A stretch of 64,000 nt of DNA, from sequence record MW822008.1; one strand, 5' to 3'. The stretch comes from Escherichia phage BF17. The position numbers and the translations under genes are program-made. The notes beneath the pieces were generated by a model. It did not search any database and was not told the origin of the DNA. It was given only the letters and a program-made list of their open reading frames with translations. Positions 4,773 through 57,873 of the stretch are shown piece after piece; positions within the stretch are counted from its first letter, which is position 1; each line of letters opens with the position of its first letter.

Positions 4773-4802
4773 TCGGGACATTTAATGTCCCGATATTTTT
4801 TT
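4773..4802 (+). terminator. rho-independent terminator
   Basis: tcgggacatttaatgtcccga hairpin plus T-run. Confidence 0.7.
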
Positions 4803-4865
4803 GAGACAAACAAAGCATTGATGATACAATGTTGCATGACAAAGAGACATTAAAAAGGAATTCAA

Positions 4866-35530: not shown

Positions 35531-35651
35531 TTAATTTTTGGGACAACGCTGAAAAGCATGATATAATGTATATTATCGGCAGATGTAAAAATGCAAACCA
35601 TTCCTCAATGATGAGGGTTTTTCATAAAAAAGAAATAAAAGGGTATTAAAA

Positions 35652-39947: not shown

Positions 39948-39964
39948 ATATTGGAACAGACTAT

Positions 39965-40080
<116 letters not shown>

Positions 40081-40084
40081 AAAT

Positions 40085-40170
<86 letters not shown>

Positions 40171-40187
40171 CAATTAAAGGTTAAACC

Positions 40188-40348
<161 letters not shown>

Positions 40349-40352
<4 letters not shown>

Positions 40353-40509
40353 CACATGAAGAATGGATGAATGACATTAATTTTAGATATTCGGGTATCG
40401 GTAAATGGCTAAAGTATCATTGGGAATTCATTTCAGAGCCACATCTGTATGATAAACTTATCAACGATCCAGCATATGAAATGTACTTAATTGAACTACT
40501 GGTACGAAT

Positions 40510-40513
<4 letters not shown>
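40349..40513 (+). CDS. MTHEEWM mini-protein, copy 2 (54 aa)
   Basis: Own translation MTHEEWMNDINFRYSGIGKWLKYHWEFISEPHLYDKLINDPAYEMYLIELLVRI; ATGA overlaps. Confidence 0.55.
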
Positions 40514-40681
<168 letters not shown>

Positions 40682-40682
40682 G

Positions 40683-41136
<454 letters not shown>

Positions 41137-41164
41137 GTATCTTAACAACAGAAGGTATATTGAA

Positions 41165-41404
41165 ATGGGTAAGTATTTTGTGAGTTATAGTTATAATGTA
41201 TCACGAAAGATTCCACGTGGTGACGGAATGGGATGGTCTTATGATGCATATACTTTAAATGAGTCATGTATCATCGAATTACAAGAAAAAGACCTTGACA
41301 TTTTAAAAATCAAACAATATATTCTTGATGTTGAATTGGCACATCGTACTGATACCTATCCAGATGTAAACAACATCAGCATCTTAGTACTAACCAAAGT
41401 ATAA
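41165..41404 (+). CDS. hypothetical small protein
   Basis: ATG 41165 downstream of promoter; ORF-track 41135 start lies in promoter. Confidence 0.45.
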   Translation: MGKYFVSYSYNVSRKIPRGDGMGWSYDAYTLNESCIIELQEKDLDILKIKQYILDVELAHRTDTYPDVNNISILVLTKV

Positions 41405-41483
41405 GATAAAAAGAACTTTACTAAATAATTCCACTGGAGATTAATATGTTTAAAGATGAACGTCCAGATTTGTAAAAAGTACT

Positions 41484-41511
41484 TGAATAAATAATTCAGT
41501 ACTGATATAAT
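41484..41511 (+). promoter_or_regulatory. early promoter with CAGTACTG, heading an ORF-poor region
   Basis: ttgaat 41484-41489, cagtactg, extended -10 tgatataat 41503-41511. Confidence 0.5.
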
Positions 41512-41519
41512 GAATTCCA

Positions 41520-41870
41520 CAATCAGACGTATATGGTGTAAGTTACGTCGATGTAATCCAGAACAAGATCTCTGGTACTCTAGGAAGTGGTGAATGTTAA
41601 CCTAGACGGGTTTGATAATTGGACGATAGGCAATTATTACTTGACTAGCAGGTTTAAACTAGAGGTGACCGTCCTTCACCAAACTGGAAAACCGGATGGA
41701 CTTTTATTTAAAAGGGTAAGGCGTGGAAATATGTTTACAGAAGTTGCTTTTAGTAGCCTGTACGCCCCACGTCAAGGTAGTCGAAAGGTAAGTTAAAACG
41801 GGTGGTTATAAAGCTGAATTAACAGCGGCGTTTAAAAGCGTCACCATCCATTTTTTTTTAATTAAAGTTG
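41520..41870 (+). ncRNA. candidate structured non-coding RNA (unclassified)
   Basis: About 350 nt after a promoter with no ATG-initiated ORF of 60 aa or more and no RBS; ends near a T8 run. Confidence 0.3.
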
Positions 41871-41875
41871 GTGAT

Positions 41876-42685
<810 letters not shown>

Positions 42686-42709
42686 ACGAAATTACAATAG
42701 GAAATTAAA

Positions 42710-42895
42710 ATGCAACTTTTAATTCTTTCAATATTGTATATTATTATAATGGTTCCGATATCAATACGTTTAATTACAGTTGAACGATTTTTATCGAAAC
42801 ATGGAAATAGATCTATGATCTTTGTACCAATCGGGTTGATATTGTTTGGTATATTTTCATTTATAATGGGAATTAACGCTACATTCATTTCATAG
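42710..42895 (+). CDS. small membrane protein
   Basis: Two TM helices; RBS aggaaa. Confidence 0.45.
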   Translation: MQLLILSILYIIIMVPISIRLITVERFLSKHGNRSMIFVPIGLILFGIFSFIMGINATFIS

Positions 42896-42904
42896 GAAAC
42901 AAAT

Positions 42905-43435
<531 letters not shown>

Positions 43436-43480
43436 GATTCCCGATTCAGTAGCTTATAAAGCAGTTCCGTGTGTGCCTAT

Positions 43481-43533
<53 letters not shown>

Positions 43534-43534
43534 T

Positions 43535-43572
<38 letters not shown>

Positions 43573-43591
43573 AGAGGTACTTCGAGTATGC

Positions 43592-43658
<67 letters not shown>

Positions 43659-43733
43659 TAATTGACATATCATTGAATGGGGTGTATTATGGTTCAAGAA
43701 GAAAACTGGGGTTTTTAACCTAACGAGGTCATT

Positions 43734-43876
<143 letters not shown>

Positions 43877-43917
43877 AATGCGAAAGAGTATAGAGACTTG
43901 TTGGTTATCTTACTTCT

Positions 43918-44000
<83 letters not shown>

Positions 44001-44003
44001 TCA

Positions 44004-44076
<73 letters not shown>

Positions 44077-44093
44077 CAAAATAAAGGTACACT

Positions 44094-55015: not shown

Positions 55016-55984
55016 GTGAAAAAGCTTGATTTAAATGCAATTTCTGAAGAAGTACTGGATGAGTGTTTTGCTAGTGAAGAAGTCAACGTATTAGAGGCTC
55101 TTGATTCCGTCGAAGAAGAAGAAGAACATGACGGTCACAAGTTTGAGAAACCAAAAACAGGTATCAGCTTAACTCGCCCTAAAGGGATAACGAATGAAAT
55201 GCTCATCCAAGCAGTGCGTGATGGTATTGACGTTGAAAAGAACATTGACCTTTTGGTTCGCTACAACTATCCAATGGTAGTAAGTGTTGCACGTAAGTGT
55301 ACATGTTTTATCCCATTTGAAGATAAGATTTCTTATGGTGTTGAAGGTTTAATGCGAGCAATTCATACGTTCGACACTACCAAAAATGTTAAGTTCATTA
55401 CATATGCAACAACAACTGTGTACATGACAATCTATAACGAAAGTGCAGATGCTAATTATCTAGTGCATTTCCCACGTTATATGAGTGTTAATAACATTTA
55501 TGTGAAACGTTGTGTAGAAGAGTATCAAAGGAAACATGGTAAATACCCAACTCCTGAGATGGTGTCAAAAGAGACTGGTATTGAGATTCAACACGTTAAG
55601 AATTGTCTAACTTACAATAACACTTATGTAGCATTGAATATGAAAATGAGTAATGATTCAGAAAGTACATTATCTGACATTGTTACTTCAGTTGAACCTG
55701 ATTACAACTTAGGCGTAGAAACTGTCAGTACCCCACTGGTACAAAGTATTGCAGAAATGATGAGTAACCTATCTGCCAAAGACCGTGAATTGATTGAACG
55801 TGTACATGGTATTGGTTCTTATTCTGAACCAGAAACGCTACGAGAAATCATTGAGAGTGGTTTTGAAGATGAGAAGGGTAAGGTCATGACTGCTCGTTCT
55901 TCATTGCACCGCAAGTACTCTGAAGCAATGGAACGTCTTCGTAAGATGGTGAAGACGCAAGGTTACGAGTTCGAAGATTTTTAA
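55016..55984 (+). CDS. sigma-70 family RNA polymerase sigma factor (regions 2, 3, 4)
   Basis: Region 2 LLVRYNYPMVVSVARK...YGVEGLMRAIHTFD...KFITYATTTV; region 4-like C-terminus; GTG start with RBS aggaga. Confidence 0.7.
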   Translation: MKKLDLNAISEEVLDECFASEEVNVLEALDSVEEEEEHDGHKFEKPKTGISLTRPKGITNEMLIQAVRDGIDVEKNIDLLVRYNYPMVVSVARKCTCFIPFEDKISYGVEGLMRAIHTFDTTKNVKFITYATTTVYMTIYNESADANYLVHFPRYMSVNNIYVKRCVEEYQRKHGKYPTPEMVSKETGIEIQHVKNCLTYNNTYVALNMKMSNDSESTLSDIVTSVEPDYNLGVETVSTPLVQSIAEMMSNLSAKDRELIERVHGIGSYSEPETLREIIESGFEDEKGKVMTARSSLHRKYSEAMERLRKMVKTQGYEFEDF

Positions 55985-55991
55985 GATTAAA

Positions 55992-56017
55992 GGGTTGACT
56001 TCGGTCAGCCTTTTTTT
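55992..56017 (+). terminator. rho-independent terminator
   Basis: gggttgacttcggtcagcc plus TTTTTTT. Confidence 0.7.
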
Positions 56018-56551
56018 ATGGGACAAATTTATTAATGGTGATACAATGATCTATGTACAATCACAATGACAGTACTGGTACTGACAATCTTCCCCTACTT
56101 CACTTGAAAATGTAAAGGATAGATGAGCTTTTCATTGTAGCGAACAGCAAAAGAAACCCGTTAGATGTGGGCATAGTTTGAACCCCTCACGGCAATGCGG
56201 CTGTATAAAGAACCACGTTAGGATAGCTGGTGGTTCCTTGATAGACATATAAGGATAACACCTTACGAATTATCTAAGGGAGAGTTATCGAATTTTGTAC
56301 AGGAAAGTTGCGTCCAAAATTTGAGTACTCACATTAAGTATTTGATTGCATAGATACTTAATGAAGATACACTATGTTTAAAAGTGTAGACCGTCATATG
56401 AAACTGAAGTAGAGAGAAACAGGATGACCCGCTTTCGCACTCATTATGAGTAATCTTCAATGCAATAGCTCTGATACCATCAGCGTCAAATTCCCCTCCA
56501 TGCGGGGGGAAGAAAAATCCCTTCCTCAAATCCCGTCAATATTAAAAGTCC

Positions 56552-56580
56552 TTGACAGTTATGATTCATTCGCGTAGAAT
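56552..56580 (+). promoter_or_regulatory. sigma70-like promoter
   Basis: ttgaca 56552-56557, 17-nt spacer, tagaat 56575-56580. Confidence 0.55.
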
Positions 56581-56644
56581 ACGTAGTATTAGAAGCGAAC
56601 AGACATCTCGAAGAGATGGATGATTAACCACTAAGGAATATCTA

Positions 56645-56854
56645 ATGAATTCAGTAATCTTTTTAATTATTGCTCTTTCACCACAATCTGGTGTACAAAT
56701 CACCCCAATGAATTCAATGAATCAATGCATTGCAGTACGTGACAGTACGTATGAACAAGTAAACAGCGTATCACTTAGAACAGTTGGTGAAGAATTAATG
56801 TGGTGTTACAATAGTAATACTAAAGAGAAACTTATTGTTGGACAAACAAAATGA
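56645..56854 (+). CDS. small protein with N-terminal hydrophobic segment
   Basis: ORF track. Confidence 0.45.
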   Translation: MNSVIFLIIALSPQSGVQITPMNSMNQCIAVRDSTYEQVNSVSLRTVGEELMWCYNSNTKEKLIVGQTK

Positions 56855-57078
56855 GTTATGGTGTTCGTTTTGAGATTCGTTCTATTGTTACCAACAACAA
56901 GAAAGAAGCATCGGTGGATGGATCTATACGCGAATTATATCTATCATGTATCCGTGCCAAATCAGAAGCTGATGCATTAGCACAAATGTTTAGTTTTAAT
57001 TTCTTACATGGATACTATTTGGTAAGAGTTATCGAAGTTAAAAAAGTAAATTTTGGGTGTCTTGAAGGAGAACTATGA
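56851..57078 (+). CDS. hypothetical small protein
   Basis: ORF track. Confidence 0.45.
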   Translation: MSYGVRFEIRSIVTNNKKEASVDGSIRELYLSCIRAKSEADALAQMFSFNFLHGYYLVRVIEVKKVNFGCLEGEL

Positions 57079-57873
57079 ATGAATACTATTGATGAATTGA
57101 TTCGCCGGAATTCAAAATACTACGAACCATCAGAAATTGTAGGTAACATTACTAAATCTGAGTTCGGCCCAAATACGCGAAAACTCATTCATGTCATGTC
57201 TCGTGATGGCTTTAAATGTGATTGTTGTGGTGAATCCAATGTGGTATTCACTTTGCATAAACACAGTACTAAAGACCGTTATAAATTCAGACCTTATGTA
57301 CTTAAAGGGAAACGCCTTGTACGCATGACGTTAGACCATAATGTACTGGACTGTCTCCAGGGCGGTAATGATAAAGAGAACATGACTGCACTGTGTGAGG
57401 ATTGTAACGCATTACGCCAGCATAAGTTTGCTGAGTACAGTGAGTTTAAACACTGGTATCATAACGCGGATCGTTCAATTGAGCCGGACGTTAACTACTG
57501 CTTTATTGAGTACATTAAGAATGCCAAAGATACATACATTCTAAAATCAATGTCACCTATTACAGTGTTCCCTGAGAATCTATTCAGTACTATGCAGCGT
57601 GATTTTAAACGTGGTATCATGAATGCATTCAAACACTTAGACAAAGGTATCAAGCACTTTGAGGTGCAATGCTTAAATGAAGGAATGAATCGTTTAGTAC
57701 AAATTTACATGAAATCATTTATAGGTGTTGACAACGCACGTCTACCAGTATATAATTACTTCATTGAAAGCGAAGAAGGTGAATCACTTCGTGATTATGG
57801 TGAAAGATTTAATAATAAAGTCTTCACTGCAATCGCAAACGAGATTCATTACTATAAACCGTATGTAATTTAA
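57079..57873 (+). CDS. HNH endonuclease (free-standing homing-endonuclease-like)
   Basis: CDCCGES zinc knuckle; HNH core MTLDHNVLDCLQGGNDKENMTALCEDCN. Confidence 0.65.
   Translation: MNTIDELIRRNSKYYEPSEIVGNITKSEFGPNTRKLIHVMSRDGFKCDCCGESNVVFTLHKHSTKDRYKFRPYVLKGKRLVRMTLDHNVLDCLQGGNDKENMTALCEDCNALRQHKFAEYSEFKHWYHNADRSIEPDVNYCFIEYIKNAKDTYILKSMSPITVFPENLFSTMQRDFKRGIMNAFKHLDKGIKHFEVQCLNEGMNRLVQIYMKSFIGVDNARLPVYNYFIESEEGESLRDYGERFNNKVFTAIANEIHYYKPYVI

Follow-up and report, generated by a model that had tools for sequence, protein, structure and literature searches.

The interval at positions 56018-56644 of the window, a stretch of 64,000 nucleotides (nt) from Escherichia phage BF17 (MW822008.1), is very probably the gene for a large structured RNA of a new family. 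It lies between the terminator of a sigma-factor gene and open reading frame (ORF) 56645, ahead of an HNH endonuclease gene. A sequence-only reading had offered three candidates for it: a large non-coding RNA (ncRNA), a replication origin, or the target or remnant of homing-endonuclease activity. The first is strongly supported. The interval has a conserved promoter and lacks a coding signal, it is 96% conserved where its flanks reach 72-86%, its homologues number more than 100, and the evidence for a fold extends to about 20 helices with compensatory changes and three pseudoknots. The predicted RNA measures about 436 nt from its start to the first of two direct repeats, and about 486 nt to the second. 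The best explanation overall, and a likely one, is a self-contained plus-strand gene for a large structured ncRNA of an unannotated family, which would act in trans.

The window phage belongs to the Asteriusvirus/Rak2-like group of E. coli jumbo phages. The 851 bases around the interval are 98-99% identical to fEgEco12, WPEC3, and EC.P1, and about 87% identical to PBECO4, 121Q, and G17. The interval is far better conserved than the genes that flank it. Within Asteriusvirus, the interval alone is 96% identical, whereas the 851-base query including the coding flanks is 87% identical. Compared to G17, the RNA core at 56094-56489 has 96.4% identity, the segment 56490-56539 has 94%, and 56540-56644 has 97.1%, against 72% for the sigma gene and the ORF preceding it and 81-86% for the three ORFs after the interval. 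The homologous gap of G17 has on one side a putative sigma-factor gene, whose terminator is annotated, and on the other small hypothetical genes and then an HNH-like gene; the G17 record contains no feature annotated inside this gap.

Searching with the interval alone gives 61 phage records, every one a jumbo phage of 310-386 kb, with three to five matching places in each. About 450 bases are approximately 70% identical in GAP32, CBB, Serratia BF, Yersinia fHe-Yen9-04, Salmonella 7t3, and Xanthomonas XbC2; homologues at this level of identity occur in Mimasvirus, Eneladusvirus, and the 7t3-like and Xanthomonas jumbo phages. The copies in other genera have different gene neighbourhoods and again occupy ORF-free gaps of about 600 bp. 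A copy that is divergent but full-length (E = 1e-49) is present in Klebsiella phage K64-1 (Alcyoneusvirus), which is related to RaK2. In the whole, unannotated relative OR844650.1, four copies are found on one strand at about 18, 128, 208, and 262 kb. The 64-kb window itself contains no second copy by blastn or nhmmer, the paralogues being elsewhere in the genome. These paralogues are more than 30% diverged from one another, and their groups are common to several genera and syntenic across them. The duplications are thus old.

Homologues were collected with nhmmer profiles, which gave 51 hits on the first locus set (E from 1e-47 to 1e-174) and 131 hits in total over phage, metagenome, and genome loci. 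A scan of IMG/VR with one invariant motif returned 43 loci. Thirty-eight of them are true members, all on contigs or fragments of jumbo-phage size; the remaining five match the motif by chance, within coding sequence or in a terminator. A two-motif pattern found 69 metagenomic loci, all confirmed by the profile search. The phage copies are mostly co-oriented with their neighbouring genes, which are unrelated between copies. Copies A, B, and D comprise a promoter, the structured RNA, a terminator (in about half of the copies), and then genes on the same strand. The copy C group lies ahead of convergent genes, and the 7t3-type copy is antisense to both neighbour genes and ends at a bidirectional terminator. 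Since the neighbours are unrelated, and in some copies convergent or antisense, the unit is not the leader of one particular gene. It is instead modular, with three to five diverged paralogues per genome in 60-70 Rak2-like jumbo phages, in unrelated neighbourhoods.

The RNA structure consists of 25 helix segments with 117 pairs, obtained from RNAalifold, a mutual-information scan, and inspection. It was scored on alignment A3, which has 34 copies, each less than 97% identical to the others. The proportion of paired cells is 86.1%, compared with 69.8% in shuffled alignments, none of 500 of which reaches the observed value, and 36-42% when the partners are slid by 1-3 columns. Changes on both sides are observed at 81 of the 117 pairs (63 shuffled, 30-38 slid). 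Compensatory cells number 623 (202 shuffled, 81-169 slid), and the covariation score is 0.427, as against 0.160 and about 0.09, respectively. About 20 helices contain compensatory changes, and the three pseudoknots are supported. Helices 4, 5, 9, 18, 19, and 20 are 100% paired, and several fully paired helices use two to four pair types. The stretches GAAACCCGU, CGGCAAUGCGGC, GAUAGACAUAUAAGG, CUAAGGGAG, GACCGU, AGAAACAG, and ACCCGCUU between the helices are invariant. The 5' hairpin and the terminal hairpin are of variable length and badly aligned in A3.

The conserved core (56060-56489; identity with G17, nhmmer, and covariation) runs from AAUCAC to CAUCAGCGUCAA, and all of its elements are given on the plus strand. 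The 5' domain (56063-56141; covariation and mutual information) begins with a pseudoknot, helix 1, which pairs 56063-69 with 56132-38 in the loop of 56127-41 and covaries at six of seven pairs. It is followed by the poorly aligned 5' hairpin (56070-74/56079-83). This hairpin contains CAGTACTG, a palindrome reported by the sequence-only reading that does exist, at 56070-56077 and not at 56079-56086, nine bases away. The palindrome is the 5' arm of the hairpin CAGTA-CTGG-TACTG. Helix 3 is a three-part helix (56095-97/120-122, 56100-01/118-19, and 56103-05/115-17) with a GAAAAUGUA loop, 88% paired, and seven of its eight pairs covary. The clamp helix, helix 4 (56127-29/56139-41), closes the domain.

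The central domain (56144-56248; covariation) begins with helix 5 (56144-48/56200-04), which has three covarying pairs. The domain also has a variable arm (56158-61/189-92, 56164-65/187-88, and 56169-71/183-85), replaced by a longer insert in some copies. Helix 9 is a 3-bp tertiary pairing of AUG at 56195-97 with CAU at 56246-48. This contact is AUA/UAU in six of the 34 copies and ACA/UGU in one, so that G-C becomes A-U in 7/34, and it is never broken. The GAACCAC/GTGGTTC hairpin of the sequence-only reading is located at 56210-56216/56230-56236 and represents helices 10-11, where all seven pairs covary. Already in the first alignment of eight sequences it was GAAGTAC/GTACTTC in GAP32 and CAAGCGT/ACGCTTG in 7t3. 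The next hairpin, UAAGG/CCUUA (56250-54/56261-65), is favoured by covariation over an alternative pairing of CCUUA with the downstream UAAGG of CUAAGGGAG. The latter is an invariant single strand in the alignment (56274-56282).

A further helix (56282-85/56327-30) encloses a movable hairpin of the AAUUUUGUACAAUAUAGAUCCGUCCAAAAUU type (56291-97/56315-21), both identified by covariation. The movable hairpin spans 56291-56321 in the window copy and has the palindrome UGUACA/UUGUACAA in its loop (UGUACA at 56296-56301). In other copies the same module is inserted in the 56439-51 hairpin; some copies have it at both sites, and a few lack it (A3 columns 380-425 and 553-590). It behaves as a peripheral module for tertiary or intermolecular contacts, and from its sequence the palindromic loop is a candidate contact for self-association.

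The 3' domain (56332-56466; covariation) starts with a long hairpin, helix 15 (56332-41/56354-63), in which all ten pairs covary. Its loop forms a loop-loop pseudoknot, helix 16, between AUUGCA at 56345-50 and UGCAAU at 56461-66 (99.5% paired, 6/6 covarying). Helix 17 (56369-72/56384-87) and helix 21 (56439-42/56448-51) are hairpins with covariation at four of four pairs each. Between them is a pseudoknotted junction in which helix 18 (56393-97/56424-28) crosses helix 19 (56405-09/56455-59) and helix 20 (56412-16/56432-36), with three, four, and two covarying pairs, respectively. The domain also holds the invariant stretch GAGAGAAACAG....ACCCGCUUUCG.

The RNA has its own promoter, which the sequence-only reading missed. 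It is located at 56019-56047 on the plus strand and consists of a -35-like TGGGACA (56019-56025), a 16-nt spacer, an extended -10 TG (56039-56040), and TACAAT (56042-56047), that is, GGGACA-16-TACAAT at 56020-56047. Its -10 element is invariant in all 34 aligned copies, and the bacterial copies have TGAAAY-17-TATACT ahead of the RNA. From these elements the transcript is predicted to start at about 56053-56055. The promoter belongs to a phage class written TGAAAC/TGGGAC-N16-17-TATAAT. Counted as the pattern TG(R)(R)ACA-N16-17-TGATAYAAT, the class has four sites on the plus strand of the window (4802-4830, 35539-35567, 39952-39980, and 56019-56047) versus 0.77 expected. It matches the 'divergent RpoD-like promoter' with a -35 of TGAAACG described for CBB and GAP32 (PMC5259590). 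The site at 39952-39980 lies 11 nt ahead of a tRNA-Ser (39991), which indicates that the class serves stable-RNA genes as well as mRNAs. This tRNA opens a cluster of six (Ser-TGA, Ser-GCT, Met, Asn, and two Thr-TGT) at 39991-44077, 12 kb upstream of the RNA.

Upstream, the terminator of the sigma-factor gene is at about 55992-56017 on the plus strand, as the sequence-only reading had it. Its hairpin and T-run (GGGTTGAC-TTCG-GTCAGCC) are visible in the sequence and it is annotated at the homologous site in G17 and UE-S1, even though a simple terminator scan of the window did not list it. It separates the RNA unit from transcription upstream. The RNA is assigned to the plus strand because of the conserved plus-strand promoter, the plus-strand T-run terminators in about half of the copies, and the G.U-rich helices. 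The pair 56414-56434 is G.U in 25 of the 34 copies, which would be an A.C mismatch on the minus strand, where 82.7% of cells are paired. Folding energy, judged by the z-scores of both strands, is uninformative as a strand test.

At the 3' end, about half of the copies have a hairpin and T-run terminator on the plus strand after ...CGUCAR, between repeat 1 and a G-rich hairpin, and such copies probably end there. The window copy lacks one, and a terminator scan finds none between the RNA and ORF 56645. Its 3' end is therefore uncertain, and the transcript may read through into the 3' extension and downstream genes, or may be processed. The 3' extension (56490-56539, plus strand) comprises the G-rich hairpin, an A-rich linker, and direct repeat 2. 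The G-rich hairpin, helix 24 (UUCCCCUC...GGGGGGAA, 56491-98/56504-11), is rich in U.G pairs and so forms only on the plus strand. It includes the CCCCTCC...CGGGGGG hairpin pointed out earlier (56493-56499/56503-56509).

The direct repeats CGTCAA are aligned at 56484-56489 (repeat 1) and 56534-56539 (repeat 2) on the plus strand, and they change in concert. The R base of CGTCAR is equal in both repeats in 33/34 copies. Both are CGACAA in the Serratia copy L065, the sister copy of which has CGTCAA, and both are CTTCAAG in K64-1. A complement of CGTCAR (YTGACG) is found at no conserved place within 54 units, the only partial complement being the GAYGN arm of the terminal hairpin. The coupled repeats may serve in processing, in alternative pairing, or in the binding of a protein. 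A conserved downstream module follows at 56540-56644 on the plus strand. It contains the consensus promoter TTGACA-17-TAGAAT at 56552-56580, correctly recognized by the sequence-only reading with 11 of 12 consensus matches, as well as AGAAGCGAACAGA, the hairpin CATCTC-GAA-GAGATG (56604-56618), and the Shine-Dalgarno sequence of ORF 56645. A counterpart of this module (AATGAATTGA...ACGAAGTGA...GAAAATTC and a hairpin) is present after most copies, including the bacterial ones. The module may belong to the RNA unit, or it may supply the next genes with their promoter and leader.

Bacterial genomes also carry the RNA. With one genome per bacterial species, the two-motif pattern finds eight loci in Enterobacterales, all full-length with E about 1e-85. 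The RNA is carried by integrative islands in Serratia, Enterobacter, Silvania, Buttiauxella, and E. coli, one copy to an island, at the edge of small integrative elements, and its whole architecture is retained. In a typical island, a large serine or tyrosine integrase comes first and the RNA second, followed by a CI-like repressor in convergent orientation, a Cro-like gene, and a conserved protein of 286 aa. No function could be assigned to this 257/286-aa protein with PHROGs and Pfam. The Serratia fonticola island also has two ParB/RepB-like genes and abuts rof/tilS. The metagenomic island L075 (13083-14033) contains KwaB of the Kiwa defence system, and the E. coli island L138 (11997-13728) contains a DUF4326-DUF488-dual-OB gene cluster. 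The RNA of E. coli LR-29-1 is inside a 10.8-kb island between ffs and ybaA, where RefSeq annotates no feature over it. Altogether, 2/5,426 complete E. coli genomes contain the RNA. The E. coli copy nests within an Eneladusvirus-type paralogue, while another jumbo-phage paralogue is the nearest relative of the remaining bacterial copies, so that at least two transfers took place. No capsid genes are found in the viewed part of the islands with cI/cro switches, and the islands may represent jumbo-phage-linked satellites or defence islands.

Two side observations were made in these islands. A perfect palindrome with 13-bp arms, CCCTATAAATATC-GGTA-GATATTTATAGGG, is found between the integrase gene and the RNA promoter in L061, L063, L064, L067, and L068, and could be a terminator or an operator. 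The RNA copy of L067 (DPOH01000171.1), a 2.8-kb contig of a 'Clostridium sp.' metagenome-assembled genome, is nearly identical to the enterobacterial island type, and its assignment to Clostridium is probably a binning artefact.

No known RNA family accounts for the interval. At gathering thresholds, Rfam 15 (4227 models, including ROOL, GOLLD, OLE, raiA, HEARO, group I/II introns, RNase P, tmRNA, 6S, RNAI, and C4) passes only six tRNAs in the whole window. At E <= 10, positions 55800-56900 give only chance-level snoRNA, miRNA, and terminator-like sRNA hits, and four diverged copies give nothing recurrent at a homologous position. The blank Rfam result indicates an undescribed family and not the absence of an RNA. 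ARAGORN detects no tmRNA in the window. Group I/II introns were rejected, as the unit lies between genes and has a promoter of its own in all contexts examined, has no intron match at E <= 10, and has a helix order unlike P1-P9. RNase P RNA was also rejected; it has no Rfam match, and a short ACAG...ACCCGCUU resemblance to CR-IV/V comes without the P4 pairing. Likewise, the helix order fits none of the RNase P-like P4, group I P3/P7, and HDV-like double-pseudoknot topologies. A literature search, which included literal sequence strings, found no published description of this RNA.

The second candidate of the sequence-only reading, a replication origin, is unlikely. As an RNA-primed origin, the promoter would drive a folded pre-primer RNA like ColE1 RNA II or the R-loop transcripts of T4 oriF/oriG, and its 3' part (the G6 hairpin and CAAAUC(C/U)CGUCA) would form a persistent hybrid, the processing of which would yield the primer for DNA synthesis. 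Several such origins would then exist in a 350-kb genome, and one in each island, which the helper phage would replicate. In size, about 450-550 nt, the unit resembles RNA II. The self-contained units with their own promoter, present as several dispersed same-strand copies per genome and as one per island, are consistent with this model, as is the 3' block kept even past the terminator. The coupled repeats could be sites at the DNA or processing level, and the sharing between this phage group and small islands without visible capsid genes resembles that of cis-acting helper signals. In contrast, known primer RNAs are not ornate and have neither multiple pseudoknots nor long invariant single strands. 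The cumulative GC skew of the complete relative shows no turn at copies A, B, and D and follows gene orientation only, although phage GC skew mostly tracks transcription. Moreover, the island RNA adjoins an integrase and cI rather than a rep gene, no Rfam RNAI or RNA II-type match exists, and no AT-rich unwinding element is evident downstream. A cis-acting leader is about as improbable. The RNA would here be the 5' part of a downstream operon transcript that controls terminator read-through, as a processive antiterminator of the HK022 put/EAR kind or a very large riboswitch or attenuator, or it would form an RNA-based immunity circuit like P4 CI or P1 C4, where a processed RNA pairs with repeated targets. 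The layout of copies A, B, and D, with same-strand genes after the RNA, fits such a role. So do the missing terminator before ORF 56645 in the window copy and the position of the island RNA in a cI/cro immunity region, and the co-varying direct repeats recall seqA/seqC of P4 immunity. Yet the genes downstream are unrelated between copies, and where a copy faces convergent genes or antisense neighbours and ends at a bidirectional terminator, nothing is left downstream to regulate. The window copy has a second promoter between the RNA and the next ORF, the unit contains no cis complement of its repeats, and about 450 nt with three pseudoknots far exceeds known antiterminators or riboswitches.

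The third candidate, a homing-endonuclease or mobile-element remnant or target, finds no support and is rejected as very improbable. It would make the interval a decayed intron or intein host, or a scar linked to the HNH gene. In its favour, the distance downstream to this gene is 430 bp, the gene is a mobile indel in its own right, and the unit is multi-copy. However, the HNH gene is a separate 1.1-kb segment. Positions 56764-57869, which contain most of ORF 56851-57078 and the HNH ORF 57079-57873, are absent in ECO103 4-12-1, where the flanks are about 150 bp apart and the RNA is kept. The segment has the appearance of a homing-endonuclease indel that stands on its own and is unconnected with the RNA, and more than 100 further places have the RNA without an HNH gene. 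A partnership of the RNA with an HNH nuclease was rejected for the same reason, and the ORF of about 265 aa after the GAP32/CBB copy is unrelated to the window HNH protein. The copies are old, syntenic paralogues under strong purifying selection with compensatory changes, and they are not decaying. Neither a group I/II intron match nor an interrupted gene is found. Still less probable are small unannotated proteins, as implied by GenBank coding sequences (CDS). The sequence-only reading was right that the interval has no plus-strand ORF of at least 60 aa and a single one on the minus strand. The longest plus-strand ORF has 43 aa (56446-56577), the minus-strand ORF has 66 aa with a TTG start (56329-56529), and four further minus-strand ORFs of 27-45 aa overlap the interval. 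'Hypothetical protein' CDS are annotated over the RNA, often on the wrong strand, in WPEC3, WPEC5, 7t3 (7t3_0445-0447), GAP32_503A, BAU.Micro_ELP-22, JP4, and others; part of the region is a 'repeat_region' in the UE-S1 record. Against these ORFs, substitutions have no 3-base periodicity (variability by phase 0.231, 0.234, and 0.239), no more than 20% of gap runs have a length divisible by three and so keep frame, and the ORFs are not conserved between copies, conservation following base-pairing and not frames. The interval is not protein-coding, and the short CDS are very likely spurious gene calls.

The closest known RNAs are ROOL and GOLLD, large ornate RNAs of phages and prophages, whose function is unknown and which form RNA-only multimeric cages by cryo-EM (PMC5737381, PMC12286853). 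Like them, the window RNA is a large, pseudoknot-rich ncRNA (roughly 450-800 nt in the class) with long invariant stretches, borne by phages and prophage-like elements as a stand-alone unit with no obligatory protein neighbour. With about 440-490 nt, 117 pairs of which 81 are compensatory, three pseudoknots, and sites in phages and islands, it resembles the class in kind and not by homology. It matches neither of the two Rfam models in sequence or structure, it is hosted by Enterobacterales and Rak2-like jumbo phages in place of Firmicutes, lake, or rumen organisms, it has three to five paralogues per genome, and it is not beside tRNA genes, the cluster being 12 kb away. ROOL and GOLLD form RNA-only assemblies; in the window RNA, the palindromic UGUACA loop on the movable hairpin is what could mediate self-association.

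Other systems are more distant. ColE1 RNA II and the T4 oriF/oriG transcripts are also promoter-driven ncRNAs of several hundred nt with a conserved G-rich element near the 3' end, and are self-contained modules on different replicons, with several copies in a large genome. The window RNA differs in being far more conserved, with a more complex tertiary-type structure, and no antisense partner of the RNA I type was found among the Rfam matches. P4 CI, P1-P7 C4, and HK022 put RNAs are similar in following a phage promoter and preceding terminators, in the two concerted direct repeats, and in the cI/cro immunity region of the island copies. They are 70-120 nt long, compared to about 450 nt. P4 CI/P1 C4-type immunity is defined by direct repeats complementary to a processed small RNA of the same unit; here the repeats have no such complement in cis, many copies have nothing downstream, and no Rfam match is found. 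HEARO/omega RNA (IscB) is likewise a structured RNA near an HNH-type gene. Conserved adjacency to IscB or TnpB is lacking here, as HNH 57079-57873 is missing in ECO103 where the RNA is present. No HEARO match is found in Rfam, and the 264-aa HNH protein of the window is a free-standing homing-type enzyme and not IscB.

The RNA most resembles ROOL and GOLLD in its size, its pseudoknots and invariant junctions, its stand-alone units, and its distribution over phages and prophage-like islands. By this analogy, it would act in trans as a folded molecule, either in an RNA-protein particle or in an RNA-only assembly of the ROOL/GOLLD kind, and would serve phage takeover or the conflict between phage and island or satellite, and not one neighbour gene. 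Such a mechanism is tentatively put forward as a possible one. Several points weigh against the gene for a trans-acting structured RNA. The mechanism is drawn from analogy only, and no protein common to islands and phage is found near the RNA copies (tblastn of island proteins against the phage genome). Single-sequence folding is unremarkable on the plus strand (z = -2.15) and better on the minus strand (z = -3.19). The percentage of paired cells is inflated, since the structure was partly drawn from the alignment on which it was scored; the compensatory counts against slid controls are less affected by this overlap. The 5' and 3' ends are those deduced from sequence. In half of the copies the 3' extension is conserved beyond a terminator, so that some of the unit's function may lie in the DNA itself or in transcripts that read through. 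A GC-rich hairpin and T-run lies between the -10 and the conserved 5' end in L037, L022, L018, L029, L043, L056, and L038 (A3 columns 12-60). These copies with a terminator-like hairpin right after the promoter are one paralogue group and two others, and are odd for a simple promoter-RNA layout. Lastly, the only RNA-seq-supported ncRNAs of this phage group, PA5oct ncRNA001/002 (PMC7318152), have no similarity to the family by nhmmer --max.

Large intricate RNAs are rare, and RNase P, group I/II introns, OLE, GOLLD, ROOL, and raiA each gave new biochemistry or architecture. The present RNA occurs in culturable E. coli phages (PBECO4, 121Q, G17, phAPEC6, fEgEco12, and relatives) and in E. coli, Serratia, and Enterobacter chromosomes. 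Unlike most ornate RNAs, which come from metagenomes or hard-to-grow hosts, it can therefore be studied at once by genetics, RNA-seq, probing, and cryo-EM. Its several copies per phage genome, its sharing with defence and satellite-like islands, and its concerted 3' repeats offer handles on function. Many GenBank records carry spurious 'hypothetical protein' genes over it, and because these phages are in development for therapy, an abundant undescribed RNA in them is worth knowing. A wider reading, possible but less than likely, would place it in a new class of ornate RNA ranking with ROOL, GOLLD, and OLE and the first centred on Enterobacterales. It would be kept in three to five copies by Rak2-like phages, captured at least twice by islands with cI/cro and defence (Kiwa) genes, and used as an active weapon or handle in the conflict between phage, host, and satellite. 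If this is true, the co-varying CGUCAR repeats would mark processing or pairing sites, the RNA might be a ribozyme or an RNA-only assembly for jumbo-phage takeover, and the islands might copy it as a decoy or as a device for sensing or hijacking the helper.

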